A stretch of 64,000 bases of DNA from an uncultured Verrucomicrobiota bacterium (GCA_964654645.1 CAZZJO010000010.1:65051-129050); one strand, 5' to 3'. Positions 1,510 to 19,570 are shown, counted from the stretch's first letter. The notes: generated by a model from the letters alone, not told the origin. A program made the numbers and translations.

Positions 1510-4500
1510 TCACTCGCGTAATCCCAAGTAAATAAAATAGAAGTAAGTGGATACTTCAGGGGTAAGCACTAATAAGTCGAACGTGTCCTGTAAATATGGC
1601 ACACCAATTGGGCCAATAAATGCCACATCTCTAAATGGCGCGTCAAGCTGAGGCGCGCCTTTAACACCGAAGACAAAACGGTGTATATATGACTCAGGCC
1701 AATTAAACCGGAGCCTTAAATATTCATTGTCTTGAATCAACTCCACATAAGGAAAATCAAACCGAGCTTTAGGTGTAAAAGGCACACCAAACGGGTCACG
1801 CGGGTCAGACCCATCCAACATCTCCTGCAAATTCTGATAACCATCACCATCCCAATCGTCGAATGGATCCACACTCGAACCGAAAAAGAGCTTTTCCCAT
1901 GTATCAACTAGCAAGTTACCGTCGCTGTCCGAATCACTTGCCAATGGAATGCTTGCGAGACTGACAGATATTACCTCCAGAGCAAGACTGTCCGGTGGAG
2001 TTGGCAAATCTGCATACCCACATACTAACAGCAAGCTCCCAGGTAACACCCCGAATGAATCCGGTAAATCGTACGGTGAGCCATCGTTTTTGTACAACAG
2101 TACACTGGTTGTCCCACCATAGATTTGGAAGCTGTCTGCGGGCCTCCCATGTGCCGAAGCTATAGCAACAACCAAGACATTAGTAACGGGCCGTGCTGGC
2201 ACCGCAGCCAAAATTGCATTTGCACCTGCACACGCACTTGCAAAAACGTTTGTTAGGGTTGACCTGCTAAGGTAATTCGAATCGTAAGTACAGTGCCTCA
2301 GAAAGTACCGTAACTCGTCCAAAGGCGGAATGAACGTAGCTGGGTTTTCATTATTGTACGAACTGCAAATATCATAGATCTCCACAGCTACAGCACGTAA
2401 CCAAGCAATGTTAACGTTAGTTGAATTTTCAACCAAATCGTTTACGGTGCGGTAAATCGTTTCCATGCGCCAACCAGGTAAACCGTTTGTGGTTTCTTTC
2501 TCCAGCCAAAGCAGCAGATTGCGGGTAAGATTACTTCTGCCTTTATCAGAAGCACGGAACGGGAAAAGCGTAATGTTCGTCCCCCAAGTTAACCCCCGTG
2601 CAACTAGAATCTCACTTAGTTTTTGTTCCACCAACACAGCAGTTAATGTGTCATTAATAGTTAAGTCACCCTTACTGATCTCACGTGGCATTCCTATCCA
2701 TAAGTTTGAGGCAGCCGCAATCCACGCATTGGCCTCGGTTATCAAGTTACCTCCACTATAAGTGTAAGGTACTTGCGCGGCAGGAAATCGAGGCACAAGA
2801 AGCAAACCGACCAATTCACGCCCTAGCCGCTTATCAGTATTTGTAGTTACAATGTCAAAGTGCAAATCGGTCGCCTCAACCAACATCCGGTCTTCCGGAT
2901 CAACAACAATGTTGGTTAACAGACACGCTGGGTTGGTGACACCTGATATGCCAAGGTATGTTACCACCCCCGCAGACAACAAACTGCCCCGCACAGCGTA
3001 CACGCGCATTCCCGTGCCTGTAGCTGCGTAAGTGTCAAGGTTCGCCAAGCCGTCGTAAGGTCTGGGTGTAACAGCACGGTCAAATGTAGCCTTGAACTCG
3101 AGTCGAGCCGCATTGGTCGGTGCGCTGTCCGGCACAAGCGGGTTTGTGTTGCGAATTAATTCTTCTAGATCAGAGTACCCGTCCCCATCGGAATCCGGTC
3201 CACCATTTGGATTGAGTCCCTTGCCAATCTCAACAAAATCGGGCACCCCATCATCATCCGAATCAAGCATAGAAGGTGGATCTGCAAAGGTGTATGTAAC
3301 CGTCTGAATAGGAGATTTGGCAAAGGTAGTTGCTGCCTTGGCATAGAATTGTACGGTAACATTAGTAAACAGTCTCACTGGTACCGAATATAACTGCCAT
3401 CCTCCTGAGCCCAACCTATAATAAGCGAAGTGCGTTGGGTCAGCCGTTGTAAGCGTCATTTCAATCGCATTCTTATAATGTCCAGGAGTTGGAGCTATTT
3501 TAACTTCAGATATCCCGTCACCAACTGGCGCATCCAGACTAAAGACCGATACAAAATTCGTGTATTGATTGACCAAACCAAAATTTGCCATGGGCGGTTT
3601 CAACCCCAGGGCAGCTACAGTTGGATTCCTCAATCCATCAGTCGTTCCCCCGTACCGCTCAGCTATCACCGTAATAACCGGAGGAGATCCAGTGGAGTGA
3701 AATTGCGAGGTCCAATCACCAGCATTAAACACATACACCAAATGCGGGTTGTTTGTAACGAACGGTTCGTATTGAAAAAGCAATACGTTACCCAACGCAG
3801 AAAACTTGCCAATGTATGGCAAGGCACCGGCCTCCCCCGCTGTGTAAGTTGTACCATTGTATATCCACGTCTGGAATCGCCTCGATACCCCTGTCCCAAT
3901 AATGCCCGAGAAAAGTTGGAAATGGCCACTCCCAAGTACACCAACGCCAGTAAACGCTAGGCCGGAATCAGCTGAAAATTGTTGGACACACACTAACCGA
4001 GAGACACCGTCGAAGTCAAAAATCTCGGCTGTACAACCCCCAGCATAAATAATAAGCAAGCGTGCCCCACCTACGTCCGGAACAACGTAAACACTCTGAA
4101 CATCCTGCTCCAAAGTGTAGGCTACCGGAGGGCCTAAGCTGAGATTTCCTGATTCATCTTCAAGCACCTGCCGGACTACCAGTTCCTTTGTTCCCGCTTT
4201 GTATGATATAAACTGGCTAAGCACATTGGTGGGATTAAACCTCTCAATTAAGTACTCACTCCCCGCAGGTAACTCCTGGGCAAGCGTTTGCACAATGGTG
4301 CCTGACTCAAGCTGAAAAGCGCGAAACGTGTTTGTTACACCGCGACAAATGATTCCCAAACGATCCGTGGTACCAGCTTTAAGGCTCACGCGGTTCGCCC
4401 GTTCGCTCCGGGACGGAGCAACATAGGTTAAATGTGTATTAAATCCAATCCCATTGGTATTGCGTACAAGCGTCCAGCGAAAGGTGGGACTGTTGTTCCA

Positions 4501-5121
4501 AATACTACCAACGAAAAGGTCATCAAGGGCTGTGTTGCCCATTCCCCCGATATCAATCACCCCAACCATGTTCGGCCCTATTGCGTTAATATGCACAGCA
4601 ACAGGTAAAATAACCGCATCCGGTTCAGGCACATCAATAAGATTAAGGCGGTTAGCCGGGGGTGCAGCACAAACGAATGCATCACGGTTTGTAGTGGTGA
4701 GTCTACCCACACCTAAAGCCGAAACGTTTTGAATACCCGTGGAACGCGTGGCCGCCCAACTCACACTCCCAGGAGCAAGCTGATAACCTATGCGAAACCC
4801 ACCCGTTGCCTTGTCCACTATCAAAATATCGGTGCGTCCATCTCCGTCGAAATCTCCACTCGCATGAAACTCAGCCGCTGTCTCATAAACAAACGCATGG
4901 GAACAAAGATCACTCATGACAAAACACAGTCCTAATAAAGGCAAATACCCATTTAATAAAAAACCAAACCGCTTTCTAATAATTGAAAAGCTAGCCCAAA
5001 GCACTATCATACAGGCTAGCCATTCCAGGCCTCCCAACATTTGCACTCGCGTTAAGTTCAAGATTCTGAGCCCTGCACATGACTCGACGCGCAATATTTT
5101 GGTTCTGGCTACCACATTCAT
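1510..5121 (-). CDS. Giant exported protein 3 of the operon (1203 aa): hydrophobic N-terminal anchor/signal, FG-GAP/VCBS-like loop, bacterial TSP3-type acidic repeats, C-terminal beta module; function unknown
   Basis: Uninterrupted 3.6-kb ORF. ATG at 5119-5121 overlaps the upstream stop (ATGA). Motifs: 'ASGDFDGDGRTDILIVDKATGGF' (FG-GAP-like), 'DSDDDGVPDFVEIGKGLNPNGGPDSDGDGYSDLEELI' and 'DSDSDGNLLVDTWEKLFFGSSVDPFDDWDGDGYQNLQEMLDGSDPRDP' (DxDxDG TSP3-like). Confidence 0.8.
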   Translation of the reverse strand: MNVVARTKILRVESCAGLRILNLTRVQMLGGLEWLACMIVLWASFSIIRKRFGFLLNGYLPLLGLCFVMSDLCSHAFVYETAAEFHASGDFDGDGRTDILIVDKATGGFRIGYQLAPGSVSWAATRSTGIQNVSALGVGRLTTTNRDAFVCAAPPANRLNLIDVPEPDAVILPVAVHINAIGPNMVGVIDIGGMGNTALDDLFVGSIWNNSPTFRWTLVRNTNGIGFNTHLTYVAPSRSERANRVSLKAGTTDRLGIICRGVTNTFRAFQLESGTIVQTLAQELPAGSEYLIERFNPTNVLSQFISYKAGTKELVVRQVLEDESGNLSLGPPVAYTLEQDVQSVYVVPDVGGARLLIIYAGGCTAEIFDFDGVSRLVCVQQFSADSGLAFTGVGVLGSGHFQLFSGIIGTGVSRRFQTWIYNGTTYTAGEAGALPYIGKFSALGNVLLFQYEPFVTNNPHLVYVFNAGDWTSQFHSTGSPPVITVIAERYGGTTDGLRNPTVAALGLKPPMANFGLVNQYTNFVSVFSLDAPVGDGISEVKIAPTPGHYKNAIEMTLTTADPTHFAYYRLGSGGWQLYSVPVRLFTNVTVQFYAKAATTFAKSPIQTVTYTFADPPSMLDSDDDGVPDFVEIGKGLNPNGGPDSDGDGYSDLEELIRNTNPLVPDSAPTNAARLEFKATFDRAVTPRPYDGLANLDTYAATGTGMRVYAVRGSLLSAGVVTYLGISGVTNPACLLTNIVVDPEDRMLVEATDLHFDIVTTNTDKRLGRELVGLLLVPRFPAAQVPYTYSGGNLITEANAWIAAASNLWIGMPREISKGDLTINDTLTAVLVEQKLSEILVARGLTWGTNITLFPFRASDKGRSNLTRNLLLWLEKETTNGLPGWRMETIYRTVNDLVENSTNVNIAWLRAVAVEIYDICSSYNNENPATFIPPLDELRYFLRHCTYDSNYLSRSTLTNVFASACAGANAILAAVPARPVTNVLVVAIASAHGRPADSFQIYGGTTSVLLYKNDGSPYDLPDSFGVLPGSLLLVCGYADLPTPPDSLALEVISVSLASIPLASDSDSDGNLLVDTWEKLFFGSSVDPFDDWDGDGYQNLQEMLDGSDPRDPFGVPFTPKARFDFPYVELIQDNEYLRLRFNWPESYIHRFVFGVKGAPQLDAPFRDVAFIGPIGVPYLQDTFDLLVLTPEVSTYFYFIYLGLRE

Positions 5122-8100
5122 GGCACATCCATCGCCTCCGTTGGGATAACCTCGGCTATCTCACCGTTCTTTTTGAACCGCACCAATAAGTATTTGTATC
5201 GTGCGCCAGAAATTACTGGTTGGGTATCCCGGACAAACATTAAGAAAATATGCATATTGTCGTTCATCATGAGTCGGTCATAAACAACGTATGAGTCGCG
5301 CAACAAACTGTTTGTGTAACAAATTCGCCCCTGCGCGTATACAACACAATAGTTTGTCAGTTCATAAGCAATGTTCTCTAGCAAAGGCGAGACTTGCACA
5401 ATGTCCCCAGAAACATTCGGAAACATGCTATTGCTCAATTGATACCGGTATAGCACCATGGGAAACAGTTTCTCACCCGAACGGTTCGTAAACAGCAGAC
5501 TCATTGGGTCCGTCGGACCAGCAATCCATTGAGGTTGCTCACGTACACCCGAGGCGTCATTCGACGTAAGCAGCACTGCCCCAACTAAAACAACCGCCCC
5601 AGTAAGAGGCGCTTCGAAACCAATATGATAACGCCCCATCACCCCCAAAGGTACATTTGGATCACTCGACTTAAACTCGCCATTCGTGTTAAGCGGTGGC
5701 AAACCGCGCGCAGGCCACGGTATCGTGCAAACGATGTAATTGGTATTCGCCGGGTTCCACACAAACTCCTCGATATTGCTCGGCTCGCTCAATGTACCGT
5801 CCTTGGCCACGGCTCTCACAAACACCGTGTATTTCTCGCCCAGCTCAATATTGCAGGGCACACTAAACTGCGGTCCAGGGCCAAACCCAGGCCCGATCCG
5901 CGGGGTGATAAAAACATAGAAATCGTACGTGTTCGTCTCGCCGTTAAGCACCAATGTTTGCCGAACCGGGTTTGGCTGTAAGTCATTGGTCTGGCGCAAA
6001 ACAAGGAAACCAGGCGCAAGATTCGAGCTTACCGTGTTGGGCTTGCCGGCGACCCACACCTCAAATCGTTCCAATCCGGGCGGCGGACAGAACCAGGTCA
6101 TGTTCATGCCCGGGTTATTTGTCACACCCGTGGCAAGCAGCGGCGAGAGCAACGGCACAGGCGGTGGCGTTGCCGGTGCAGTGCTTACGCAGCCGAGCTT
6201 GACAAGCGGGCTTGGGTTACCGTGCTCGTCAAGCACTTGCAGATAATAGCATATTGTTGCGCCACCGGGCGGCATACCGTCGTCCTGGCATGAAAAACTC
6301 GGCGCACCGCCAATGTCGCCCTGGCACAGCAACATCAGCGGCCCGTCGTCAACCCGCCGGTACAAACGCCATTCGCGGCTTGTGGGTGTGGGGTAGCCGA
6401 TAATGACAATGTTTGTCCTGGTGCCGTCCGGTGTTACAGGCACGTGTCGTTCACACCCCTGATTCAGGGCTGTGAGCATCCCTACAAGTCGAGCCTCAAA
6501 ATTAACAAGCACATCCTTCTCGGGTAACCACGATTCCTCGATTCGCACCCAAAACGGTTGCGTGAGCTGGCCAACCTGCCCGTCAAACGTGCCCGCCTTG
6601 GGCCATACGTACAGGAAGTTGCCAAACCTGCCCCGCGAATCCGTGGCAAACACAAATTCACGACTCCACTCGCCCGGGCTGTAGAAGAGCCGACCTGAAT
6701 CGTACATGGCGACGAACTTATTGTTCTGCGGATCGTAAATGCCGGCAATAAACTGCACCCATGCAAACTGCTGACTGCTCCGGGTGCAGTTGAGCCGGAA
6801 TGTGAACGTCCAGGGCGCGCTCGCATTCGTCAATGCAAAACTCCTGTAACGAACCTGCGGCTGCACGCAGTGAATCTGGACACTGCCCGTAGGCGCATCA
6901 GGCCCAACCCGATCCCGCAACACTCCAAACGCAGGCGCGCTGTTGCCCGACAAATTCGGTCCGCACGCGCCAAGGTCCTGCGCGCGCACTGTGTACCAGA
7001 ATGTTCGGCCCAAATCCTGCGTGACAGTAGGGCACCCTGGACCATTATCTACATAACTACCTGTAACGCACCCATTGGTATGTTGAACGATAGCAATAAG
7101 ATTATTAGACGGATTATGCGCCCTGGAATGCATCTCGTTTACATTTGTCCAACGGTAAACCCAGTAATGACTAACGGGATCAACTACGTTAGTGTTCTGA
7201 TTCCAGACAACTCGTAAATATTGTCGTGGGGTACCACCTACAAACGAGTAATCATTCTCGACACGCACACCGCTGGGAGGCGCGGGGGGAAAACGGTCGC
7301 ACACAGTCACCAAAGTACCCGGAGATACAAGCCCGTCCCTACCAAGAATGTCACGCGCGGTCACAAAATAATAAAACTGCGCCCCATTTGTGAACCCAAG
7401 GTTCACATACCCAGGCCGGAATCGCCCATCATCATCTGAATAATAAAACGTTTCAGGATCACCAATAGGAGGTGGACTAAAATTGGCAACATCGTTCGTG
7501 CCGAATTCTTTTTCTGTAAGTACGGGTAGATTGTTGCAACGCTTAACATGCTGCGGTACAGATACCGCACGTGCCACCAACACCTCTGGCGACGGCGGTG
7601 TCAGATCCCAGCGGTTCGTTGGCGCCTCTGCGTAAATTTTGGTAACACGCCAAACATTAAAACCGTATTGTAGTATGCCGAGCCTCCGTAATGAATCCGG
7701 AGTAGCCCAGCGTAATTTTACATTAATGTCGCCCTTCGGAGTCGGGTCCGGCACTTCAACAGGTGCACCAGGCGCAGGCAGCAATACCGGCGGCCCAGGC
7801 TCGAGTGTTATACGACCAATTACCCCTTGGTCAGTCTCTGTAGCTGGATCAAACAGACGTACCTCGTACGTCGTTTGCCCAGCCAATACATCCGCATACG
7901 CTATGCCCAATGCCAAAGCCACCCCAGGATGCATCCGCGTCATCAATAAGAGATTTTGGAAATACTCCTCCTGAATAACCGAGCCTCGTATTGCTGCCGA
8001 AACTTTTTCGGCCCGCGATATGCTCGACGATGGCATGAGCACTTCAAACAGAGTCTGCAAATCCTGTTCAAGCTTGGCTAAATCTTCCCCTAAATTCTCC

Positions 8101-8420
8101 GCCCGCCTGAGCAATGGCTCTATATTTAGTGGGTCAGTCTGTTGGAAAATAACTGCCACACGAACATACGAGGCATGAGACGATGGATCACCAGCCTTGG
8201 CATAAATGGCAAAACACCGACCCAACAAAATCTCAGGTGGGCTACTCTGCCAAAACAAGTACGCCCAATACCGTCCAACCTTGTCCTGATAAACAGTACC
8301 AGCTGTCAAAATAATATTCTCAAGACTTTCCTGGGCATTAATGCGGTTGATCACTATCAACCCAAGCAATACGAAAATCCGGACCACCGATAAAACTGAA
8401 AATAACTTCATCAAACGCAT
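5118..8420 (-). CDS. Giant exported protein 2 of the operon (~1100 aa): signal peptide, helical N-terminal region, several FN3/Ig-like beta modules; function unknown
   Basis: The ORF track gives 5118..8642, but the first 74 codons overlap the 3' end of the upstream gene. An internal ATG at 8420 gives a classical signal peptide 'MRLMKLFSVLSVVRIFVLLGLIVINRINA/QE'. FN3-like strand patterns include 'YYFVTARDILGRDGLVSPG', 'FWYTVRAQDLGACGPNLSGNS' and 'YTVFVRAVAKDGTLSEPS'. Confidence 0.75.
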   Translation of the reverse strand: MRLMKLFSVLSVVRIFVLLGLIVINRINAQESLENIILTAGTVYQDKVGRYWAYLFWQSSPPEILLGRCFAIYAKAGDPSSHASYVRVAVIFQQTDPLNIEPLLRRAENLGEDLAKLEQDLQTLFEVLMPSSSISRAEKVSAAIRGSVIQEEYFQNLLLMTRMHPGVALALGIAYADVLAGQTTYEVRLFDPATETDQGVIGRITLEPGPPVLLPAPGAPVEVPDPTPKGDINVKLRWATPDSLRRLGILQYGFNVWRVTKIYAEAPTNRWDLTPPSPEVLVARAVSVPQHVKRCNNLPVLTEKEFGTNDVANFSPPPIGDPETFYYSDDDGRFRPGYVNLGFTNGAQFYYFVTARDILGRDGLVSPGTLVTVCDRFPPAPPSGVRVENDYSFVGGTPRQYLRVVWNQNTNVVDPVSHYWVYRWTNVNEMHSRAHNPSNNLIAIVQHTNGCVTGSYVDNGPGCPTVTQDLGRTFWYTVRAQDLGACGPNLSGNSAPAFGVLRDRVGPDAPTGSVQIHCVQPQVRYRSFALTNASAPWTFTFRLNCTRSSQQFAWVQFIAGIYDPQNNKFVAMYDSGRLFYSPGEWSREFVFATDSRGRFGNFLYVWPKAGTFDGQVGQLTQPFWVRIEESWLPEKDVLVNFEARLVGMLTALNQGCERHVPVTPDGTRTNIVIIGYPTPTSREWRLYRRVDDGPLMLLCQGDIGGAPSFSCQDDGMPPGGATICYYLQVLDEHGNPSPLVKLGCVSTAPATPPPVPLLSPLLATGVTNNPGMNMTWFCPPPGLERFEVWVAGKPNTVSSNLAPGFLVLRQTNDLQPNPVRQTLVLNGETNTYDFYVFITPRIGPGFGPGPQFSVPCNIELGEKYTVFVRAVAKDGTLSEPSNIEEFVWNPANTNYIVCTIPWPARGLPPLNTNGEFKSSDPNVPLGVMGRYHIGFEAPLTGAVVLVGAVLLTSNDASGVREQPQWIAGPTDPMSLLFTNRSGEKLFPMVLYRYQLSNSMFPNVSGDIVQVSPLLENIAYELTNYCVVYAQGRICYTNSLLRDSYVVYDRLMMNDNMHIFLMFVRDTQPVISGARYKYLLVRFKKNGEIAEVIPTEAMDVP

Positions 8421-8550
8421 GCTCCAAAACAAACCTGAATTGCATAACAACCCGTAAAACACCCCAGTGGATCCACTAGGATGCAATTTGCAAGTACCCG
8501 TAGTACCAAAAAACTGCCAATTACCATTTCGTGTCCTCGCCTTCATGTAA

Positions 8551-11500
8551 TCAATAATCAACATCCCAAGAACCACCTCGATACGTAATGCCCACCGATT
8601 TGCCGAACTTGATACACAACGGGCAATACCCAACCTTGCCACTCAAACGCCCCTTGCCGTTAAATCGCAAACTGTCACCGCTCTTGACACCGACCATCTT
8701 GACTTCGCCTTTGATCGTCACAATACAAAGCGCCTCACCCAACACACCCGCCTTCATAACGCCACCATAAGTAGGACCTTCAATAAAATAAAATGCGCCC
8801 GCTCCTATCCCCGCTGAGATGTTAAACAAACATGAGGCAGGTATGCCCAGCGCGGCTTCCGATATGGGGATCCAACCTTCGCCATATAAATACCCACCCG
8901 TAAATGGCGGCGAGCCGAGCACAGATGCAACATCTGGGTCTATCATTTGAATCGGGTCAAGCGTACAAGTGCGTCCGAAGAAAATCCCACCAGCAAGATC
9001 ATACGACTGTATTTTGACCCCGCACACGGCAGCCAGGTAATTCTCGTACAGGCCAAAAGCAACTGCAGCATCCAACCTGTAGATCTTGAACGACTCGAAA
9101 TCGAGACCTCCAGTAACAGTAAAACTCCCAGCCATCCCCACAGGCTTGAGCGGGCTGGTCTGGAAGCTGAACTTGGTTGCAACATTTGCGCGCAGGTCCG
9201 GGCTGATCCAATCCAGCTCGACGTCATTTGCGCCCAGGGTGACCTCGGTGGCGGTATCGCCGCTGAACCCGCAGCCAGGTGTGGCAGACGAATCCAATTC
9301 CTTGATAATTAGATACGCGTTGAACTCCATATCCTCCGGCACACGCCACCTAAACCGGCCATCCAACCGTAGCATCTTAAGCGAGTTCCCATTTATGATA
9401 GCGTGACCGTCAATTTGGCCAGCCCCAATCACATCGCTCAAGTCCCCAAGTGCACTGTTAATCGTATTGTCAAGTTGCGCCAGTGTCTGCCCGATAAGAT
9501 GCCTGATAACCCCATTAAGCTGCTGGAACACACTGTCAACCGCCTCGCGATAAACGGCGTCTAGGTCATAGAGCCGCTGTTTGAGCGAGACCTGAATACC
9601 CGCCGCAACGGCAGTTTCGAGGAACCGTTCACGCACACGCGCCCGAATCAACTGTTTAATCTCATCAGCCGAGTAATGCAAAAACGGGTCGTCAATCGAA
9701 TAATTTAGGCCGTCAAAAAAGGCACGAATTTCCAAGCTTGCGCGCGTCGTTGCGTTGGTCAGTTCGCCAGCCGCAGCTTTGAGTTTTGTGTCCAGTTCCT
9801 GAGCGAATTCCTGGCCAAGCACGACTTTAGCACGGATTTCACCCAGAGCAGTCTGCACTTCTTTGAGCTTGGTGACGAGCTGTTGAATGGTAGGCTCGGC
9901 CTCTTTCATCAGATTGCTCAAGTGCGGTTCAGCAACCGCGCTCAGGAATTCCTCAGCCAGTTGCCCGACAAGCTCACCCACCAACTGCTTTGCAATCGGT
10001 CTCTGGCCATCCACCAACTTGAGCAGGCCATCCTTGACAGTGCCAAGCGGCACGCCATTTGTGCCCTTCGAAATGCTGTCCGTGATTGCACTAATTGCAT
10101 TGGTGACCTCGTCGAGCGTGTCCGCCAATTCCTTGAGCAGCCCCAGCGGTTGCGCTGCCCCATCAGCCAACGTAATCAACTGTCGTGACACGTTGGTGAG
10201 CACTGCGCCCGTACCGGATCCGATCAGGTAATTCGACAGCACAAGGCTGACCCGGTCAGGGAATTGGCCTCTCGACCCCGTTGGCAACAAATCCCATTCC
10301 CGCTGAAGCTGCCGATAAAGTGCGTCAATGGTCGGATCAACTGTTCGCTTGAAAACTTCGTCAAAAAATTCGTCTAGAATGCTGGCCAGCATGCGGTCTA
10401 GGTTTGCCGCGCCTTCAAACAACACATCACGCACCTCGGCACCGGCAGCATTTGCAAGCGCTTTGGCCACACCCAATTGCCCATCGATTGCGTTAAAGGT
10501 CATGTTGGCTAGGCTGATCTTTGGCAGGCCGTCATACTGGATACCAAAATCTAGCGATGCGTTGGCGGGGTCCATGTAGGTGATCTCATGCTGCACCTTC
10601 AATACAAGCAAGTCGTTGGTCACGCTTGTGAACGACTTGAACGTGCGCGTGCTGTCAGTCCAAACCAGCGGATAGTCAAAGTCAACTACATCAAGCCACA
10701 GTTTCTGCGCCCGTGGATGGTATTGCTGGGTCGGGTTGTTCCGGTAATGCGCCAGCTTGACCCCGGGCGGAAAACCGAAGTTGTCCTCATCAAAATAATC
10801 CGCCGTAAAGAAATCCTTGCCGCCAACCTGCCAGCCGTAATTTGGGTTGCCCGAGCCGGCGCGCGGCCAACCACCCGCAAGCCAGATCGGCGGCGCAGGC
10901 GTGACACCGTTTGTTCGCCCGCTGGTATGGATATGCACCTTAAGCTCTTCGAAGAACGGCACCTTCATCTTGCCGACAATGTTGATGAAGCCCGTCGGGG
11001 GCAAGTTGCCCGGGACCGCGTTCGAATAACTGCTGTAATACGCGTCAGCCACGGGCGTCACGGTGTATGCCGTGTTGGTCGGCCCGGTCAGCTTGAACCG
11101 GCTTGGCAGTTTCAGCCGCGAATCAACCCCCACCAACCCAAATGATTTCGGGATGAGATTGCCATTGGTTTGAAACCCCAAAAAACCTGTCAACGGCTCG
11201 TCAATGTGGCTTGCGTAAGCGCGCACACCAACAACAAGCAAGCCTTTCCCGGGTTCACACTCTTGGCCCGGATTGCTCTTGAACTGAATTGCAAGCGGCT
11301 CGAAATCAGCATTCCACCATGCAAGTTTCTTGAACCCCTGGCTGGCCGGGGCAACCTTCGCGCCAAGCAGCGCACCTACACAACTGAACTGCATCTCCTC
11401 AAAATCAAGTGTGAAATCCGACGGATACGGTACCTTCAGGTAGCCTGCCGTGCGCGAGTCAACGTTTTGACTGTCCAGATACGCAACGCCGTAGTTGGCA

Positions 11501-14496
11501 AACACAACCTGGTAACCCAGCAGGTTAATTTCCGACGGGAACGATCCCGGAAATGCTTCATGCATCCCAGATACACCCCCCAGCCGCGCATAGTACTTCG
11601 AACAACCGCTCAGGTCGTATGGCCCCACGGCGCGCCCTGCCAACACGCTGATTGCCTGACGCCACCGGTTCGAATACACGCGGAAATTCAGCCCAGCATA
11701 GTCTGCCAACCCCAAAAGGTACCCGGGTGAAATGGGCCGTTCGGTATAGGCCGGGTCACTCGCCAACACGCCGCTCAACAGGATTGTTGCAGGCCCGTAC
11801 TCACTCGGCTGCAGATTATGGTCGCCGCGCACAAAATGCCCCGGTACATGCAACGCTGCATTTGTAAAATTGAAGACACGCTGCGCAAATGTACCTGCGC
11901 CCGGGATAAACCCCCAGGAAAGCGTATGACTCGGGCTAAGCGGCCCATCCGCAACAAGACCGCCATCAGACGTGAACCGCAACCTGCCATCAGCAGGTAC
12001 CAAAACCGGGTAGTTCGTCATTACAGCAGCATCGCAACCCGGACATGTGGTTGTGTACGGAACAGTTACGGTTGCAACCCCGCACAATGCGCTGTTTGTG
12101 TCAGGCACGCACAAGTCGCGCTCGACGCGCAGGCTTCCCCCGTTTGTCCACACAATCATCACATCGTAAGGGAAATGCGTCCTGAACGACCCGTTGTTTA
12201 GCTGGATTGTGAAGCTTAACTCTGCTGCGCCACTTGCACTGGCATGCACAGTCGGCGAAACTGTCACGCTTGAGGGGTTAATAAACTGATAGTACCCACT
12301 ATTATCCCGTTTGAACGACATATTGGGCGGGTCAACTGTGTTCGAGCTGTAATACGCCTGATAATAGTTCTCCAGAAATCGGGTGTGGATCACGAACACG
12401 TTCGATATGCCGATTGTAAATGTGCCCGTGCCTGTGTTCCACGTGAGCGCATCTGCAACAATCCAAAGCGGTTTCGACTCTTCCGAGCAAAAGACATAGC
12501 CGCCCGGGGCATAACTCAAAGTCCCTGCCGTGGGCGCAAGATTTTGACCCAGGGCAATATTGGCAAACTCAAGCGTGCTAAAATGATAACGTAGGGTGTC
12601 AAAGTTTGCATTGTTTGTCGTGTAACCAAACCCCGACGGCAATGCCACCGTCAGATTCGCGCGCGCGCCTGTCGTGCTCAATGTAATCGGGCCGCGCGTA
12701 AAACGCACATTCTCCAATACAGCCGTGTCCGGGCTGGGTGCATTCAGCACAACCGACCCGGAGGCAAGCACCGCATTGCCATTGGTTAATAACCGGACGT
12801 TAAGCGGTGTGCCGTCGCCGTATGTGTGCGCCGGATTACCTGTAACAAAACCACTATTGTTAGTCACAGCCAGCACGGTGTTGATAAAGCCTGCCCCCAA
12901 GGTGCCGGGCGCAGGGTGATTACCCAAAGTGCTGAACCGGGTCTCGATAGCGCCAAAATACAGCCGGCCATTGAAATGCAACAGCCGTTCAGTGGTACTG
13001 TTGGTTGTGTTACCAACCAATGCAGGCTGCCCGGGTTCGTTCGTGTGCGAAATTGTAACCCGCAGGTAATAAGTCTGATTAACAGAATCAAGCTGACCGG
13101 CAGGTTCAACCGGCACGTCAATATTGTACGTCTGCGCATACGGCACCGGGGGATTACTGGTGCCGGGCTGATAACTGTAGCTCCCCAAATTCAGCACAAC
13201 ACGGTTTGTCTTTGTGGCAACCGGCACACCGTTACTGGCAAAAAGCGTGTATTCGAGCGCAAGTGGATAAAACGTTACCATATTGACTCCGCCGAAATTG
13301 TCGTACCGGTGTGTCTCAAAGTTCACACGGAAAATGAAATTGCTCCGGTTCGGCGCGCCATTAACCATGTAAATGCGGTTCGTCTGCACGCTGTTCAACC
13401 GCGTAAGGATATTCAACGCAGCGTCGCCACTGACCATGTTGGTAAAGTGGAAAAACTGGTAGGGACCATCGGTGCACACCAGGCCAGTATCAATACCACC
13501 CCGGAACAACCGGCACTCGATTGTGTACGTGTCGTACGGGTTAAGCCGCGCAGCAGGCCGGATCGCAGCAAAATTCGTCAAGGTGAGCCGCTGCCCACCA
13601 CCAACGTTTGCGTTCGTCAGTAGGTTGTACGTGTAGGTCACATTCGTGAGGCCGTTGGTTTCGTAAATCGGGAAGGCCACACCGGCAGAGTTCAACAAAC
13701 GGTATTGCAACCGGTAAGTGATGTTGCTCGGCGCAGGCGTAAAGTTCTCAGCGACAAATACCGCACGCACACGGAGTGCATAGCGGTGGTACGCAGGACT
13801 GTTCGATAGCGCATCGGCATCTATCACATACCCTGTGTAGTTTGTGAGCGTCAAACTGCTGAACTGCTCCATGATCGGCGCCGTGCCGGCTGTTACCTCG
13901 ATGTCGTCCAGATACCAACCTTCGTAGTTTATTATGGAATCGCTCACGAACTCGAACCGCAATGTACGCGTTGTTCCAGCAAATGCATTGAGGTTGGTGC
14001 TGACCTCGGTCCAATTGCCGATCGCAACACCGTTTGACCATAATACAGTGCTGTCCAACAACACACGGCAATAGTCCCATCCGGTCTCGATACTCGGCAC
14101 AAGATTCCAAAAACGCAGGTTCACTCGGGAATAACCACTGAGGTTTATGGTGCGGCTCATGTAGGCTGTCATGTAGTTGGTGTACCGCGGCGCGTTTGTT
14201 GCGCCGGCGTAGCCGATACCCGCACAGTAACCTTTCCAATTCCCACTTCGCGGTGACTGCCCGCCAAATGCAGCGTCAACTTTATCCCAATACGACGGAC
14301 TTCCGTTAGGGTTACCATCTCCTACATTCCAAGAACCAGGGAAAATCCCCTCGAACCCCTCTGATACAATGGTGGTCTGCCCCACACAAACTGAAAGAAA
14401 GGCAAATAACAATGAGGCTACCCCCACCGCAATCAACTCAGAAAAGCTAAGTCGATTTTGCAGCCCCCAAATTTGACATGCTGCGTTTTTTCCCAC
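8551..14496 (-). CDS. Giant exported protein 1 of the operon (1981 aa): signal/anchor, jelly-roll lectin-like (MAM/LamG-like) domain, ~1100-aa beta-rich region, ~360-aa amphipathic helical region, Gly-rich beta C-terminus; function unknown
   Basis: Uninterrupted 5.9-kb ORF with a GTG start at 14496. Hydrophobic stretch 'LIAVGVASLLFAFLSVCVG'. Jelly-roll-type boundary motifs 'SEGFEGIFPGSWNVGD...' and '...YEGWYLDDIEVTAG'. Helical segment 'LGVAKALANAAGAEVRDVLFEGAANLDRMLASILDEFFDEVFK...'. C-terminus '...GIGAGAFYFIEGPTYGGVMKAGVLGEA...GYCPLCIKFGKSVGITYRGGSWDVDY'. Confidence 0.8.
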   Translation of the reverse strand: MGKNAACQIWGLQNRLSFSELIAVGVASLLFAFLSVCVGQTTIVSEGFEGIFPGSWNVGDGNPNGSPSYWDKVDAAFGGQSPRSGNWKGYCAGIGYAGATNAPRYTNYMTAYMSRTINLSGYSRVNLRFWNLVPSIETGWDYCRVLLDSTVLWSNGVAIGNWTEVSTNLNAFAGTTRTLRFEFVSDSIINYEGWYLDDIEVTAGTAPIMEQFSSLTLTNYTGYVIDADALSNSPAYHRYALRVRAVFVAENFTPAPSNITYRLQYRLLNSAGVAFPIYETNGLTNVTYTYNLLTNANVGGGQRLTLTNFAAIRPAARLNPYDTYTIECRLFRGGIDTGLVCTDGPYQFFHFTNMVSGDAALNILTRLNSVQTNRIYMVNGAPNRSNFIFRVNFETHRYDNFGGVNMVTFYPLALEYTLFASNGVPVATKTNRVVLNLGSYSYQPGTSNPPVPYAQTYNIDVPVEPAGQLDSVNQTYYLRVTISHTNEPGQPALVGNTTNSTTERLLHFNGRLYFGAIETRFSTLGNHPAPGTLGAGFINTVLAVTNNSGFVTGNPAHTYGDGTPLNVRLLTNGNAVLASGSVVLNAPSPDTAVLENVRFTRGPITLSTTGARANLTVALPSGFGYTTNNANFDTLRYHFSTLEFANIALGQNLAPTAGTLSYAPGGYVFCSEESKPLWIVADALTWNTGTGTFTIGISNVFVIHTRFLENYYQAYYSSNTVDPPNMSFKRDNSGYYQFINPSSVTVSPTVHASASGAAELSFTIQLNNGSFRTHFPYDVMIVWTNGGSLRVERDLCVPDTNSALCGVATVTVPYTTTCPGCDAAVMTNYPVLVPADGRLRFTSDGGLVADGPLSPSHTLSWGFIPGAGTFAQRVFNFTNAALHVPGHFVRGDHNLQPSEYGPATILLSGVLASDPAYTERPISPGYLLGLADYAGLNFRVYSNRWRQAISVLAGRAVGPYDLSGCSKYYARLGGVSGMHEAFPGSFPSEINLLGYQVVFANYGVAYLDSQNVDSRTAGYLKVPYPSDFTLDFEEMQFSCVGALLGAKVAPASQGFKKLAWWNADFEPLAIQFKSNPGQECEPGKGLLVVGVRAYASHIDEPLTGFLGFQTNGNLIPKSFGLVGVDSRLKLPSRFKLTGPTNTAYTVTPVADAYYSSYSNAVPGNLPPTGFINIVGKMKVPFFEELKVHIHTSGRTNGVTPAPPIWLAGGWPRAGSGNPNYGWQVGGKDFFTADYFDEDNFGFPPGVKLAHYRNNPTQQYHPRAQKLWLDVVDFDYPLVWTDSTRTFKSFTSVTNDLLVLKVQHEITYMDPANASLDFGIQYDGLPKISLANMTFNAIDGQLGVAKALANAAGAEVRDVLFEGAANLDRMLASILDEFFDEVFKRTVDPTIDALYRQLQREWDLLPTGSRGQFPDRVSLVLSNYLIGSGTGAVLTNVSRQLITLADGAAQPLGLLKELADTLDEVTNAISAITDSISKGTNGVPLGTVKDGLLKLVDGQRPIAKQLVGELVGQLAEEFLSAVAEPHLSNLMKEAEPTIQQLVTKLKEVQTALGEIRAKVVLGQEFAQELDTKLKAAAGELTNATTRASLEIRAFFDGLNYSIDDPFLHYSADEIKQLIRARVRERFLETAVAAGIQVSLKQRLYDLDAVYREAVDSVFQQLNGVIRHLIGQTLAQLDNTINSALGDLSDVIGAGQIDGHAIINGNSLKMLRLDGRFRWRVPEDMEFNAYLIIKELDSSATPGCGFSGDTATEVTLGANDVELDWISPDLRANVATKFSFQTSPLKPVGMAGSFTVTGGLDFESFKIYRLDAAVAFGLYENYLAAVCGVKIQSYDLAGGIFFGRTCTLDPIQMIDPDVASVLGSPPFTGGYLYGEGWIPISEAALGIPASCLFNISAGIGAGAFYFIEGPTYGGVMKAGVLGEALCIVTIKGEVKMVGVKSGDSLRFNGKGRLSGKVGYCPLCIKFGKSVGITYRGGSWDVDY

Positions 14497-15271
14497 TTAT
14501 ACTTTTGAGTTATTAAATCACTCGCTTTGAACGCTAGCCATAAGATGCGGGAATTCTCCCACTCTAAAGGCATCGCACCCACTCTATTCAAGGCACACAT
14601 AATCTATCGGGTCAAGCACTTTTCTCACTCAGCCAATTCCACCCTATCCTGACTACACCTTGCACAACATTTTTATAAGCACCTGCCAAAAGCCGAGTTT
14701 ACAAGTACACCCTGCTTAACCGCTTCAACACAGAGCGGCAAAAACATCTACTTACATTCCAATACTAACACACCATTTCGAAAAGCCGACCTTCAATCAT
14801 AAGCGCGCTAAACAAAACTGCCGGTGCTCCCCAATTTTGCTGGTCAAACGCTAAACCGTAAATTACAGTATGGGATGGAAAATCAACGAGTCCCTACCCA
14901 AAACTCCTGGATAAAAATGCATGAAGGACGAAACCCTCCTGGTTTGTTTTCTAGCGATCCTGGTTATGACAATTGTTAAACCTTACTCACATTCGGGATG
15001 CGCATGTGCGGTCCAACACCCTCAGGCCTCATAATCAAACGTTTACACCAACTACCACAAAAACCTACAACCCATACGCCCTTAATCATGAAAAACTTCC
15101 CTAAACTTCGTGGCGCTACCAGAGTAAGTTGTGAGGTAAAATACTTTTGCTCGCTAAGTTTTATATGCCGACTCAACCCCGGTGCTGGAAAAGTAAGATA
15201 TCCACGCAATGCACAGCACCACCCGTGGACAAATTTACACCACATCATTATTTGCTGTTTCCACTTATTTC

Positions 15272-18200
15272 TTACTCCATCAAGGTAACCCCAAGAAGTC
15301 CAATTATAACTTCATTTGCGGAAGCGCTAACCGTAAGGTTTTTGAGCTCAGAGCTAGGATATAGCGGGATAGCCAAAACCGTGCCGGCGCCTCCAGGGAC
15401 GTGTCCACCTTTACCTTTGAATGCTACCGGATCTAGCACTCGGACGATCCCACTTTTCAGGTTTACGCGCGGCGGAATAGCTTCCGGCCTCATAAAGGCG
15501 AAATCGTCTATGAAATAGTCCTGCTCAATCGGCCACCAATTGACGGGGTTTTCCAAATCTACATCTGTGAGCTTACCGTCTTTGTAAGCGATTTTAATAT
15601 GGCCATTAACAAATCTACTTTGCATATGAGTGGTGGTCCCTACCATAAAGAGAAAGCACCATTTTGCGCGCCCGCTCAATGGAATTGTGACTGAATTTGG
15701 GTAATTATCCCATTTGGAAACGAATACTACATTTGGCGCGTTTGCCTGCGTGGAAATCAGGAAAGGTATCCCGTTAGGCATTGTAAATATACCTTCGCGA
15801 ATAGCAGCTAAGTTGCGCAAGCCCGAATCATCTATAGTAGGTTTTAAGTTAAAGTCACACCAACCACCAATGCCTTGCTTTGGGATTGATAATGAACAAA
15901 AAGGTGACCGTGGGGAGAGATACTCGTTCTCAAATATTCTGCTGAGCTGTTCATTGTAGAACTGACTCAAATCGACGGTCCTAAGACGCGCATTTGGCTT
16001 TATTGGTACTGTCCAGTCAAATTCAATCCCCAAAACTCGATTTGTGCGTGGAATTATCTCAATGGATATCGGTTCCCACCAACCCAGCTCATCCTGGACC
16101 AAATTAACAAACAGGGTTTTATATCCCCCAACACCAGACTTCAAATTAAAGCTGGCTTCATGACTTGTTATGCGAGATTTGCTAAGCACATCTTGGGGGT
16201 CATCAAATCCATTGATAATGGCTTTCTTAGGGCGGATGGTTATTTTTCCACCAGCAGGTACCCGGTAAACCCTTGAAATTTTTTCGCAGGAGTCCCCATC
16301 CCACCTGATCGAAAATGAACAAAAGTTAGTGGGCGGAAAAATCACCTCGATCATCGGATGACCAACAGAGTTCGTATCTACTAAAAGCTGTGCACCAGAT
16401 ACTCCTTGCTTAAGGAGGCAAGGCCTGCTCGTCCGGGCAGACAATCGAAACTTTATCCGAGCGGGATGCGGAAACCGCGACGTAAACTTATAGGAAGACT
16501 CTTCAGCGTTTTTACGGAAATCCAGGCGGAAATCTGGATGGTTAAAATGGAGCCACTGCCATGAATCTGGCCAGCCTGGCACGATAACAATTTCTCCGCC
16601 AGGCAAATTAGGTCGTACACCAACAAGCCCTTCAACAATTGCACGAGCAGCGACACCAATCCCATCGGCAAAATCGCGTTGTGCTTCCCGCCTTGCTACA
16701 TCATACGAAAGAGTCATTCCTATGTTTCCAGGGCAAAGTCCTGAATACATGGTAGAAATAATTGCACCTTTAAACAAAGGGAAGGCACGATCAACTCTGT
16801 TTGCTTGCCAATACGCCAGTGCCATGTGCAAACACTCTGCTACGACTATATTGTTAACCGACCACATATATGGCATCCAACTAGTGGTGGAAAGCACGTA
16901 AAGGTCTTCCTTTGGAATTCCAGGACCAATAACCGGGATGTGCGGGATCTGTGTATCAACGTATCTCGTCATTAGCCAGTGTTTTAATGAAGAACCGAGT
17001 TCCGAGTCGATTGCGTGATACACTGTCCATAAGGCAGCATTGGTATGTAAAAGTTGGTCACCGATAACATCACGATACTCTGCATAGCAACCGGTATCTG
17101 AAGACCACAAAAGGCTTTCAGCGGCGCGGTAAATCCTCTCGGCCTCATGCAAAAGCTCTTCAGCCCCTTCTAACCCAAAACGCACACCCCACTCACCGAG
17201 TGTTTTAAACGCCAAGTAGTTATAGGCGGTCGAATGGGTTACACCGCCGCCGTTGTACTGTAAATTATCGCTTGCCCAAATGCAGGCGTACGCCTCATAC
17301 AAGGGCAGTTTTTCTTGCCCAAACTGGCGCCGAAATAGCCGTTTTTCCCATGCAAAATGGCGCATTAATACTGGCCAGTATTCGCGAATCTTTTCCAACT
17401 CACCCGTCCATCGGACATGTCGAATTAATCCATCGACCGCAACCAAATTCATATCATAATGAGAACGTGTCATGTTTCCGTTTGAGTGTAGTGCGCGTTC
17501 GCATCGAGAAAGATTAGAGTCTTCGTCAGGACCTGGGAACGTTTCGGGGATGGGGTTAGTATTTTGGGTCTGCACATAACGCAAAATATGTAGAAAAGTG
17601 CGTTCGTGCTGGCCCAATGCATCTCCTGCATATAAACCTCGCCACCCCAAGAGTGGTACCCGCCATGCTACCGCTCCATGAAAGTACGACCGGGTCGTTT
17701 CATCCCAGATCGCCTCAGCAGCAATATTTAACGCAGATACAGCTAATTGGATGAACTGATCCGGACAATCTATTTCCACCCTCTTTATTATTCGCTGCCG
17801 TCTAGTTTCAGCCATCTCAAAAGCCTTTTCCATCTCCTCAAGAGGCCACCTTTTTTCAACCTCAGCTAACTCATTACTAAATTGCGACCGACAAATGACC
17901 AGATAATATGGCTCAGCATTAAGTAGATGCACACGCCCTATTAATACAGGGAGCGAAACAGCATGGTTGGTTGATAATAACAAACCAACTAAACTGTTCC
18001 ATTCATGTGCATTCGCCACAAACATTTTCGTTGTTTTCGATACAGCACCCACTAAAGACACCCGGGGACTGGTTACTAAGAATGCCCGTTCAGTGAACTT
18101 AAAATGATTGTTAGTGCAAAATTCAGGCCGAAGCTGAAGTAATACATTGACGGGGGCGGCCTCACATCCAATATCCGCGTTACGGCGGAAACGTTGCCCG

Positions 18201-18745
18201 CTAGCCCCCCCAAACGACCAAACTAAGTCCAAACCCGCTCCCTCAACGAGCTCCACCTTAAAAATTATACCCTCCAGATTTGCCAATGGAATGACCACCA
18301 ATTCGATCTTCTCCCCATATGGGCCAACAATAATGTATCGCATTCTCCCGGGCTCGTAAAAAGATACGACGTTAGTAGTTTCATGTAACCAACAAGCACG
18401 AGAAGGGGTAGTAATCCCAAACCGAAGGTTTCCTCCCTTCGCCGGCAAGAGAAATACAAATTCAGGTTTATCCCCTGCATCTACTCGCATTGCCCCTCGA
18501 TTGCAATATAGAGGGCGATTAAAAAATTCTAATCCATTAGTAATCACAAACCCACCATCAGCCGGATGATACCTGAGAGTACGCTCAACATTTTTCAAAA
18601 GATTTGGCCAGCGTAAGTCGACCCATTCAGCCGGAGTTTCTCGAGTTCTGTTTATTTGCGCTCCGCACGGCTGAGCCAAACAAATCACAGTTGCTACCAC
18701 CCATATGATGCAATTCACAAATCCCGACCTAGCCGTGTTTCTCAT
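15272..18745 (-). CDS. Large secreted protein (1157 aa), probable glycoside-hydrolase-like enzyme; CAZy family not assignable by eye
   Basis: Signal peptide 'FVNCIIWVVATVICLAQPCGAQ'. The aromatic- and acid-rich central region ('WRVPLLGWRGLYAGDALGQHERT', 'YEAYACIWASDNLQYNGGGVTHSTAYNY') resembles (alpha/alpha)6 glycosidase cores. The C-terminal part is a beta-sandwich-like region. Carbohydrate-gene neighbourhood. Confidence 0.5.
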   Translation of the reverse strand: MRNTARSGFVNCIIWVVATVICLAQPCGAQINRTRETPAEWVDLRWPNLLKNVERTLRYHPADGGFVITNGLEFFNRPLYCNRGAMRVDAGDKPEFVFLLPAKGGNLRFGITTPSRACWLHETTNVVSFYEPGRMRYIIVGPYGEKIELVVIPLANLEGIIFKVELVEGAGLDLVWSFGGASGQRFRRNADIGCEAAPVNVLLQLRPEFCTNNHFKFTERAFLVTSPRVSLVGAVSKTTKMFVANAHEWNSLVGLLLSTNHAVSLPVLIGRVHLLNAEPYYLVICRSQFSNELAEVEKRWPLEEMEKAFEMAETRRQRIIKRVEIDCPDQFIQLAVSALNIAAEAIWDETTRSYFHGAVAWRVPLLGWRGLYAGDALGQHERTFLHILRYVQTQNTNPIPETFPGPDEDSNLSRCERALHSNGNMTRSHYDMNLVAVDGLIRHVRWTGELEKIREYWPVLMRHFAWEKRLFRRQFGQEKLPLYEAYACIWASDNLQYNGGGVTHSTAYNYLAFKTLGEWGVRFGLEGAEELLHEAERIYRAAESLLWSSDTGCYAEYRDVIGDQLLHTNAALWTVYHAIDSELGSSLKHWLMTRYVDTQIPHIPVIGPGIPKEDLYVLSTTSWMPYMWSVNNIVVAECLHMALAYWQANRVDRAFPLFKGAIISTMYSGLCPGNIGMTLSYDVARREAQRDFADGIGVAARAIVEGLVGVRPNLPGGEIVIVPGWPDSWQWLHFNHPDFRLDFRKNAEESSYKFTSRFPHPARIKFRLSARTSRPCLLKQGVSGAQLLVDTNSVGHPMIEVIFPPTNFCSFSIRWDGDSCEKISRVYRVPAGGKITIRPKKAIINGFDDPQDVLSKSRITSHEASFNLKSGVGGYKTLFVNLVQDELGWWEPISIEIIPRTNRVLGIEFDWTVPIKPNARLRTVDLSQFYNEQLSRIFENEYLSPRSPFCSLSIPKQGIGGWCDFNLKPTIDDSGLRNLAAIREGIFTMPNGIPFLISTQANAPNVVFVSKWDNYPNSVTIPLSGRAKWCFLFMVGTTTHMQSRFVNGHIKIAYKDGKLTDVDLENPVNWWPIEQDYFIDDFAFMRPEAIPPRVNLKSGIVRVLDPVAFKGKGGHVPGGAGTVLAIPLYPSSELKNLTVSASANEVIIGLLGVTLME

Positions 18746-19558: not shown

Positions 19559-19570
19559 AAAGCCCCCTTT

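Follow-up and report, generated by a model that had tools for sequence, protein, structure and literature searches.

A conserved three-gene module for giant exported proteins in Verrucomicrobiota and Kiritimatiellota, with a predicted outer-membrane barrel at the end of its first product

The 64,000-nt stretch of DNA analysed here (the window, on which all coordinates below are counted) comes from an uncultured Verrucomicrobiota bacterium and carries on its minus strand three consecutive giant open reading frames (ORFs), g1, g2 and g3. Together they span 12,987 nt, or 20.3% of the window, in agreement with an initial annotation that had described three giant minus-strand genes filling a fifth of it. 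Given their length and the dozens to hundreds of full-length homologues of each, the three ORFs lie far beyond chance. Across the module DNA that they share with the window, contigs from a 77 °C sediment metagenome of Great Boiling Spring and from two ENA assemblies are 99.7-99.96% identical to it, and the window derives from a hot-spring Verrucomicrobiota population. The genes are laid out as follows.

8551-14496, minus strand: g1, ORF of 1981 aa with a GTG start
5118-8642, minus strand: g2, maximal ORF of 1174 aa; the start favoured by homologues, at 8420, gives about 1100 aa
1510-5121, minus strand: g3, maximal ORF of 1203 aa; the likely true start is the ATG at 5040 or at 5010

Between the g1 stop codon (8551-8553) and the g2 ATG at 8420 lie about 130 nt. 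With this ATG the g2 signal peptide falls exactly at the N-terminus, and it is the start favoured by the homologue alignment and proposed in the initial annotation. Gene callers applied to near-identical contigs begin g2 at the ATG at 8564 instead, giving a 1148-aa product and a 14-nt overlap with g1. At the second junction, an ATGA at 5118-5121 joins the g2 stop to an ATG of g3, and 4-nt overlaps between module genes are seen repeatedly among related loci. The tetranucleotide reported earlier is present, but it is less likely to mark the real start of g3: about 60 N-terminal residues of the maximal ORF are missing in 78% of aligned homologues, and the signal peptide immediately precedes the conserved AFVYE motif, so that g3 probably starts at the ATG at 5040 or 5010, still within about 110 nt of the g2 stop. 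Shuffled sequence gives at least as many promoter and terminator predictions, and none of the internal terminators is conspicuous.

Each product begins with a hydrophobic signal, as first noted, and in all three families homologue alignments resolve it into a cleavable signal peptide of the signal peptidase I type with an AxA|Q-like site. Two of the signals are placed on the window as follows.

14380-14496, minus strand: g1 signal peptide, aa 1-39, ...SVCVG|QTT
8331-8420, minus strand: g2 signal peptide, aa 1-30, ...INRINAQ|E

Cleavage of the AxA|Q type falls directly before a conserved QTT-EGFEG motif in g1 homologues, the 39-aa length being common to close relatives, and the A-x-A-Q| site is aligned in all 25 of the g2 homologues inspected. 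The same alignments hold no lipobox in any of the three families, and no PEP-CTERM, LPXTG or type IX secretion system (T9SS) tail was detected in the module proteins. These alignments show all three products to be predicted Sec substrates cut by signal peptidase I.

The module is widely distributed. A scan of one genome per species finds g2 relatives in more than 301 species genomes, ranging over Limisphaerales/Pedosphaera, Verrucomicrobiales including Prosthecobacter, Opitutales/Puniceicoccaceae and the Kiritimatiellota family Pontiellaceae; the g2 family yields more than 400 word-index matches, and a profile search recovers 524 clusters (50% identity) at E≤1e-30 among 1.84 billion representatives. 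Full-length homologues number about 45 for g1 (28-85% identity, all annotated 'hypothetical') and about 60 for g3. The named homologues of the module proteins are all 'hypothetical protein' or 'thrombospondin type 3 repeat-containing protein', and all come from metagenome-assembled genomes (MAGs).

Conserved gene order in relatives had been set beforehand as a test of the trio, and synteny proves essentially universal. When the fetched loci (numbered with L below; homologous proteins are numbered with P) are compared by tblastn, g1-g2-g3 occur on the same strand and in the same order in every one of about 60 related loci with enough flanking sequence, with three exceptions. The order is permuted to g2-g3-g1 in one Verrucomicrobiales MAG (L063), an unrelated 2124-aa InlB-B-repeat/DUF5123 protein (positions 3447-9821 of the Pontiellaceae locus L086) is inserted between g1 and g2, and a gap of about 1.2 kb opens within the trio in L076. 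Since all three loci still hold the trio together, the linkage survives rearrangement. The genes flanking the module differ from locus to locus, and when 1293 flanking ORFs taken from about 79 loci are clustered, no fourth gene, be it a regulator, a secretion component or a chaperone, is seen to recur.

Up to three paralogous copies of the module occur per genome, and one Limisphaerales MAG holds its copies on three contigs (L001/L030, L024 and L029). Paralogous modules within a genome are 32-46% identical and equally diverged in g1, g2 and g3, as is also the case for the pairs L022/L039 and L059/L067. Among 47 loci in which all three genes are complete, the pairwise-identity matrices of g1, g2 and g3 correlate with r = 0.91-0.95, a correlation that stays at 0.76-0.86 for pairs below 50% identity. 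The correlated matrices and the equal divergence of paralogous copies indicate that the module duplicates and diverges as a unit. Such co-divergence is consistent with physical interaction between the three proteins without proving one, shared phylogeny contributing to r. Protein lengths are near-invariant, with few indels, down to about 30% identity, unlike those of adhesins that vary in repeat number.

The trio is also kept in a distant lineage (L091, positions 10001-20970 of that locus), whose g1 is 28% identical to that of the window and whose g2 aligns with its counterpart by hhalign at E 1e-91. The g3 of this locus is 682 aa long and matches only the N-terminal half (about 600 aa) of the window g3, at E 4e-46. 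Within about 4 kb downstream of it, after two small ORFs, lie genes for a Tricorn_N/PD40 protein and an OmpA-domain protein. No relatives of the module were found on IMG/VR viral contigs. As judged from these comparisons, the module is a self-contained and vertically inherited unit of Verrucomicrobiota and Kiritimatiellota.

The g1 product is the largest of the three and the one that defines the module, with a length that is near-invariant and with few indels among its homologues, and divides into five parts behind the signal peptide.

13882-14379, minus strand: MAM-like jelly-roll, N-terminal, aa about 40-205
12973-13788, minus strand: tandem beta modules of about 120 aa each, aa 237-351 and 383-508
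10537-12819, minus strand: beta-rich core, aa about 560-1320
9427-10512, minus strand: long-helix bundle, aa about 1329-1690
8554-9423, minus strand: C-terminal amphipathic, Gly-rich beta domain of about 16 strands, aa 1692-1981

The jelly-roll scores 29.2 bits against the InhA-like MAM family of Pfam (cut-off 26.9) and matches InhA (4yu5) in a PDB profile search at E 9e-4, which gives a name to the jelly-roll domain suspected in the initial annotation. It is missing from most of the distant homologues, whose tblastn matches begin at about residue 205 (forms of about 1780 aa), and is replaced by Laminin_G_3 in two homologues, P0043 and P0045; a Laminin_G_3 tip is what the g1 of L091 carries, and one genome holds both a g1 with the MAM tip (L022) and one without it (L039). 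The tip, which may be MAM-like, LamG-like or absent, is on this evidence an accessory and exchangeable element. The two modules that follow are related to each other (hhalign of the sub-alignments, probability 93.6%, E 2e-7). The core is the most conserved part of the protein, holding most of the invariant alignment columns and the invariant polar motifs ERP, SKYY-R, GVSG-HEA, YLDSQN-DSRT and HLHTS.

Residues 782-1981 of g1 were modelled with AlphaFold2 (AF2) from an alignment of 44 sequences, with a mean predicted local distance difference test score (pLDDT) of 79.6. The modelled part of the core (aa 782-1320) is all-beta with a pLDDT of about 90 and has no significant Foldseek match in the PDB. 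It leads into helices of 17-47 residues (pLDDT 65-90) that occupy the helical region of about 360 aa noted initially; the length of this region is conserved and its sequence poorly so, and its Pfam and PDB profile matches, to apolipoproteins and designed bundles, are purely compositional. The Gly-rich beta end of the earlier description is modelled as 16 strands of 11-16 residues connected mostly by turns of 2-4 residues (pLDDT 72-84), the strands being hydrophobic on one side and polar or charged on the other throughout the family. The best Foldseek matches of this domain in the PDB are outer-membrane barrels, ranging from porins and ushers to barrels of polysaccharide export, namely OccAB3, LamB, ScrY, Wzi, FimD, PelB, OmpT, VDAC, FhaC and LptD, at probabilities of 0.75-0.96, and porin-like barrels are again the barrel-type matches in the viral library BFVD, where none is significant. 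The window g1 ends in ...SWDVDY, and a C-terminal W-x-V-x-Y/F is found in about half of the homologues. The domain is therefore best amended to a predicted porin-like outer-membrane barrel of about 16 strands; the statement that the module lacks an autotransporter barrel stands as regards sequence families and is qualified by this model. If the end of g1 is such a barrel, the protein would be a membrane anchor, not a free exoprotein.

One turn of the predicted barrel, between strands 14 and 15, carries a CPFC (CxxC) sequence (aa about 1956-1961, within 8554-8700 of the window) that could be a disulfide or a metal site and is replaced by GYFSY in P0045, the most distant homologue.

The AF2 model of g2 (pLDDT 85.6) is a chain of about ten beta-sandwich domains, in which a conserved five-helix insertion (aa 97-171, 75 aa) is the only sizeable helical element. 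No Pfam or NCBIfam family covers the protein. Foldseek nevertheless aligns it at E 4e-11 to 1e-8 with the ectodomains of gp130, OSMR and LepR, with PirB and with the macroglobulin (MG) domain arrays of C5, A2ML1 and TEP1, and also with integrin legs, fibrous adhesins and the GhpA grappling hook. The FN3/Ig-like modules proposed earlier are thus borne out by the fold (E about 1e-11), but the template modelling (TM) scores are only 0.08-0.23 and the identities 7-11%, so that the likeness to FN3 and MG proteins is generic, at the level of domain type. The model predicts a rigid multi-sandwich rod or ring.

The g3 product carries an N-terminal domain and two blocks of calcium-binding repeats.

3787-4896, minus strand: N-terminal domain of about 370 aa with one FG-GAP-like calcium-loop motif, GDFDGDGRTD
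3121-3273, minus strand: first TSP3-type calcium-binding block, aa about 617-667, best stretch 643-664
1792-1938, minus strand: second TSP3-type block, aa about 1062-1110

A resemblance to integrin alpha chains had been suggested for g3. TSP3_bac is matched above its cut-off (25.6 against 25 bits, in two stretches), whereas FG-GAP (15.2 against 22.1 bits, E 0.02) and FG-GAP_3 (14.2 against 26.9 bits, E 0.07) remain below theirs, and hhalign comparison of the thirds of the N-domain gives only weak alignments (E 0.04-0.09), with no internal repeat recognised. The first TSP3 block marks the end of the portion kept in the short g3 of L091; the second is supported by the second TSP3_bac stretch and by a BLASTP match to the TSP3 tail of a 586-aa protein encoded elsewhere in the window. 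Residues 78-437 are 36% identical to the N-terminus of exported FGE-sulfatase-family proteins of about 720 aa (P0237-P0246). In L088-L090, which represent two distinct gene contexts (L089 and L090 being nearly the same locus), the genes for these proteins adjoin a GFO_IDH_MocA oxidoreductase gene and lie downstream of a histidine kinase and a response regulator. Because the N-domain recurs in proteins from contexts unrelated to the module, it is a reusable exported module and could be a shared docking or targeting module. The FGE-sulfatase proteins themselves were ruled out as alternative module members, as their contexts are unrelated and g1 and g2 are not nearby in these loci.

Comparison between the families by hhalign finds no domain common to g1, g2 and g3, and no Pfam or NCBIfam family covers them beyond the MAM-like jelly-roll of g1 and the TSP3 repeats of g3. 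Far below threshold, g3 matches the NCBIfam entries Amuc_1099_fam (22 against 50 bits, over residues 643-678, a TSP3 stretch), MtsD (18 against 800) and CglD (16 against 400), the last two confined to a TSP3 stretch of about 40 aa. No glycoside hydrolase, lyase, peptidase or esterase is matched in Pfam or NCBIfam at E≤1, which agrees with the earlier remark that all module hints are non-catalytic. Nor do the module proteins match any toxin, defence or phage family; RTX and MACPF identities were rejected, as neither Pfam nor NCBIfam has such a match in g1, g2 or g3. An anti-phage defence or phage module was likewise rejected, with a best PADLOC E of 0.06, no fold match in BFVD and no relatives in IMG/VR; the PHROG matches to tape-measure proteins are only compositional (E≥0.09), and there is one TSP3 match besides. 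Profile searches with the three family alignments against PDB sequences return just the InhA MAM domain and compositional helical matches, and no description of the trio turned up in full-text searches of the literature. The absence of a match to a characterised system across Pfam, NCBIfam, PADLOC, PHROGs, PDB profiles, Foldseek (PDB and BFVD) and the literature, together with the conserved synteny, supports the proposal of the initial annotation that these are undescribed, co-functional, exported and non-catalytic proteins: of the refuting observations it had named, neither of the two that were tested occurred.

The predicted architecture of g1 most resembles that of stalked barrel proteins of the OmpM/SlpA type, also that of PelB-type porins and, more loosely, that of autotransporters. 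In OmpM, an SLH domain attaches to the cell wall and is followed by a coiled-coil stalk and a C-terminal 16-stranded outer-membrane barrel; the protein was reported absent from the PVC (Planctomycetota-Verrucomicrobiota-Chlamydiota) phyla on the Gracilicutes side (PMC10628300). The same order of periplasmic binding domain, helical stalk and barrel found in these proteins of diderm Terrabacteria would be matched in g1 by the beta-rich body, the helix bundle and the approximately 16 strands. By contrast, neither Pfam nor a search of PDB sequences with the profile of the g1 alignment shows an SLH domain in g1 or a likeness in sequence to OmpM or SlpA, and g1 is 4-5 times larger, has two obligatory partner genes and occurs in PVC phyla; in the monomer model its helices are bundled within the single chain, in place of a trimeric coiled coil.

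Type V secreted proteins and g1 have in common a signal peptide followed by a very large N-terminal part and, in g1 by prediction, a beta-barrel at the C-terminus, with no separate secretion machinery encoded nearby. The g1 protein differs from type Va proteins in matching neither Autotransporter PF03797 nor TIGR01414 (g1 at E≤1; C-terminal fragments by Pfam at E≤10), in having about 16 strands and not 12, and in placing a helical bundle of about 360 aa, not a single linker helix, next to the barrel; the modelled part shows no sign of a beta-helix passenger. Nor does the module fit two-partner secretion or Omp85 proteins, with no POTRA, ShlB, Bac_surface_Ag, TpsB or TPS/haemagglutination-activity match in g1, g2 or g3.

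The exopolysaccharide porins PelB, BcsC and PgaA each place a periplasmic helical region before a C-terminal barrel of 16-18 strands. This pairing of helices and barrel recurs in the g1 model, and PelB (the PelBC structure 9h80) is among its Foldseek matches, at a probability of 0.75. The bundle helices of g1 are long, however, and match no tetratricopeptide repeat family in Pfam, a beta-rich body of 1300 aa precedes them, and no synthase or glycosyltransferase genes are linked to the module.

While g2 shares with FN3 cytokine receptors and MG arrays a chain of about ten sandwich domains, it lacks the thioester domain, CUB domain and bait region of A2M and complement proteins and matches none of the Pfam families A2M, TED and A2M_recep. 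In g3, the DxDxDG-type calcium-binding loops and the TSP3_bac repeats recall integrin alpha, CglD, MtsD and Amuc_1099; the single sub-threshold FG-GAP repeat contrasts with the seven blades of integrin alpha, and with CglD, MtsD and Amuc_1099 only the TSP3 repeats are shared, with no full-length equivalog match. Since every family or system seriously considered fails a test that defines it and no curated family exists for the three proteins, the module falls outside the described kinds of system. We rate it, on comparative grounds, as a probably undescribed system built from familiar domain types.

Our preferred interpretation, for which belief and doubt are evenly balanced, is that the trio forms an outer-membrane-anchored, non-catalytic complex with a structural or binding role. 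In this model g1 would be held in the outer membrane by its C-terminal porin-like barrel of about 16 strands, and the bundle of long helices would join the barrel to the large conserved beta-rich body, which would end in the two beta modules and the exchangeable lectin-like tip. In addition g2, a chain of about ten FN3/MG-like sandwiches with a constant overall length, and g3, with its FG-GAP-like N-domain and calcium-binding TSP3 repeats, would dock onto g1, giving a stoichiometric scaffold anchored in the outer membrane, and we infer that this scaffold would bind a ligand or a partner structure rather than catalyse a reaction. An even-stranded barrel has both of its ends facing the periplasm, so that the default topology of g1 is periplasmic; the Sec signals of g2 and g3, their only export signals, and the absence of linked secretion genes likewise make a periplasmic complex the default. 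The main alternative is an autotransporter-like route in which the barrel would carry the g1 body out to the cell surface. A binding device facing the environment would account about as well for the exchangeable lectin-like tip, for domains of extracellular type and for the multiple divergent paralogues.

Several observations weigh against this interpretation. The barrel is predicted from one AF2 model, which has long loops at both ends of the barrel, and its Foldseek matches have E values of 0.08-0.5 and TM scores of about 0.3. Eight diverse 300-aa C-terminal fragments from the g1 family match no outer-membrane protein family in Pfam even at E≤10. An F/Y terminus is present in only about 19 of the 42 complete homologues, the rest ending in ...SWHFD, ...SWNIE or short polar extensions. 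Six cysteines of the C-terminal domain, those of CPFC among them, are conserved in 90% or more of the 44 homologues aligned, something not usually seen in outer-membrane barrels. That a genome may hold several divergent copies speaks against a single housekeeping tether, and the dense invariant polar motifs of the g1 core could be the active site of a novel fold.

A more ambitious formulation, which we put forward tentatively as possible rather than probable, is that of a hitherto unrecognised, phylum-specific envelope machine, a giant assembly that would be anchored in the outer membrane and either cross the periplasm or reach out from the surface. Its roles might include that of a tether or scaffold by which the unusual PVC envelope is organised, or that of a capture-and-uptake device for 'selfish' polymer acquisition, with paralogues of different specificities.

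We consider it unlikely, though deserving of weight, that the module is instead a secreted surface adhesin, matrix or fibre system, with all three proteins outside the cell and binding polymers, prey or surfaces, a kind of role that the initial annotation had suggested. Binding would then fall to the lectin-like tip of g1, to the FN3 stalk and to g3 through its N-domain and calcium-binding repeats, and the C-terminal beta domain of g1 might be soluble or might translocate either the passenger of g1 itself or the two partner proteins. The domain types (MAM/LamG jelly-roll, FN3/Ig, FG-GAP and TSP3) are typical of extracellular binding proteins, and the swapping or loss of the g1 tip between lineages is expected of an environment-facing end; the presence in one genome of several divergent paralogous modules suggests that their specificities have diversified, and fibrous adhesins and GhpA are among the Foldseek matches of g2. 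This reading has to contend with the lack of any secretion system, sortase-like signal, PEP-CTERM or T9SS C-terminal domain accompanying the module in about 70 loci, with the plain Sec signals of g2 and g3, with domains that are unique and fixed in number and not repetitive and variable, and with the unmatched autotransporter barrel families.

Improbable, in our view, is a novel exported enzyme complex in which the g1 core would be a catalytic domain of undescribed fold. Its substrate could be, for example, the cell wall or polysaccharides of a sulfated or complex kind, with g2 and g3 as accessories that bind it. Verrucomicrobiota and Kiritimatiellota are polysaccharide specialists, the core combines many invariant polar and charged residues in short motifs with a pLDDT of about 90 and no structural match, and the N-domain of g3 is common to exported FGE-sulfatase-family enzymes. 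Against these points stand the absence of enzyme family matches, Foldseek probabilities of only 0.03-0.04 for the lyases matched by g1, and flanking genes that are not consistently those of carbohydrate-active enzymes or sulfatases.

The Foldseek PDB matches of g1 with E values near 1e-3 are limited to ApoB100, the sole one at E≤1e-3, followed by vitellogenin and MTP (E 7e-4 to 4e-3). Together with profile matches of the helical region to apolipoproteins A-IV, A-I and E and apolipophorin-III, and with strongly amphipathic strands, they would suit a carrier of lipids or other hydrophobic ligands whose core, helices and sheets enclose or coat the lipid. We find such a carrier very improbable. 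The ApoB100, vitellogenin and MTP alignments have probabilities of 0.16-0.30, TM scores of 0.04-0.09 and root-mean-square deviations of 34-67 Å, which reflect only a shared beta-alpha-beta order of segments and led us to reject the reading of g1 as a large lipid transfer protein; the apolipoprotein matches are compositional (E 0.01-0.5), and neither Vitellogenin_N nor a lipoprotein family is matched.

Scarcely credible is a tripartite toxin, Tc-like (A/B/C) or pore-forming and directed at competitors or hosts, for although three giant proteins are co-encoded, g3 shares an FG-GAP-like domain with TcB and g1 has weak Foldseek matches to the alpha-pore-forming toxins ClyA and AhlB, these have probabilities of at most 0.1, no RHS/YD, SpvB, TcA, MACPF or RTX family is matched in g1, g2 or g3, no Tc subunit is among the Foldseek PDB matches of g1 and g2, all three proteins carry Sec signals, the alignments show no hypervariable toxin-like C-terminal region, and the module is chromosomal, phylum-wide, vertically co-diverging, present in several copies per genome and absent from viral contigs.

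Among the polymer degraders of soils, waters, hot springs and guts, Verrucomicrobiota and Kiritimatiellota are abundant, and the biology of their envelopes is poorly understood. The module takes up about 13 kb per copy, in up to three copies per genome, and keeps its gene content, protein lengths and linkage across several orders, yet its three families are absent from Pfam, NCBIfam and the PDB. Should g1 be the outer-membrane anchor of a complex of about 4300 residues, the module would represent a new type of envelope structure with ready sequence markers; if it is an ordinary set of surface adhesins, three large 'hypothetical' families would still gain an annotation. Genera with cultured members, Prosthecobacter and Pedosphaera, are among the MAG matches.

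The module is flanked by ORF-poor tracts at 288-1509 and 14497-15271, in which the GC skew of the plus strand falls to -0.45, that is, the coding strand is G/T-rich. They contain no ORF above 90 aa and give no Rfam match at E≤1, and they are kept only in contigs of the same population, not in relatives with 85% identical proteins. The tracts are indeed long (1222 and 775 nt), but the earlier description of them as the two longest noncoding tracts depends on small-gene calls, as two other ORF-poor tracts, at 26985-28345 and 44887-46281, are of similar size. Directly upstream of the module lies a gene for a 1157-aa DUF4450-domain protein (15272-18745, minus strand), which probably stands outside it because it does not adjoin the module in other lineages. 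A second minus-strand cluster (28346-34475) encodes exported-looking proteins, namely a pilin-like one of 280 aa that has a prepilin N-methylation motif, one of 1149 aa without a Pfam family and the TSP3-tailed 586-aa protein; it was ruled out as a paralogous module, its similarity to g2 and g3 being confined to the TSP3 tail.

The GC content at third codon positions (GC3) is uneven along the module. It reaches 0.61 in g1 (8551-14496) and 0.58-0.67 in about the 3' 60% of g2 (approximately 5118-7220), compared with 0.45-0.49 in the 5' part of g2, 0.45 in g3 and 0.39-0.51 in the 31 other genes of the window. This mosaic suggests that part of the module may have been replaced by recombination with a higher-GC relative, or that it follows a distinct codon regime.

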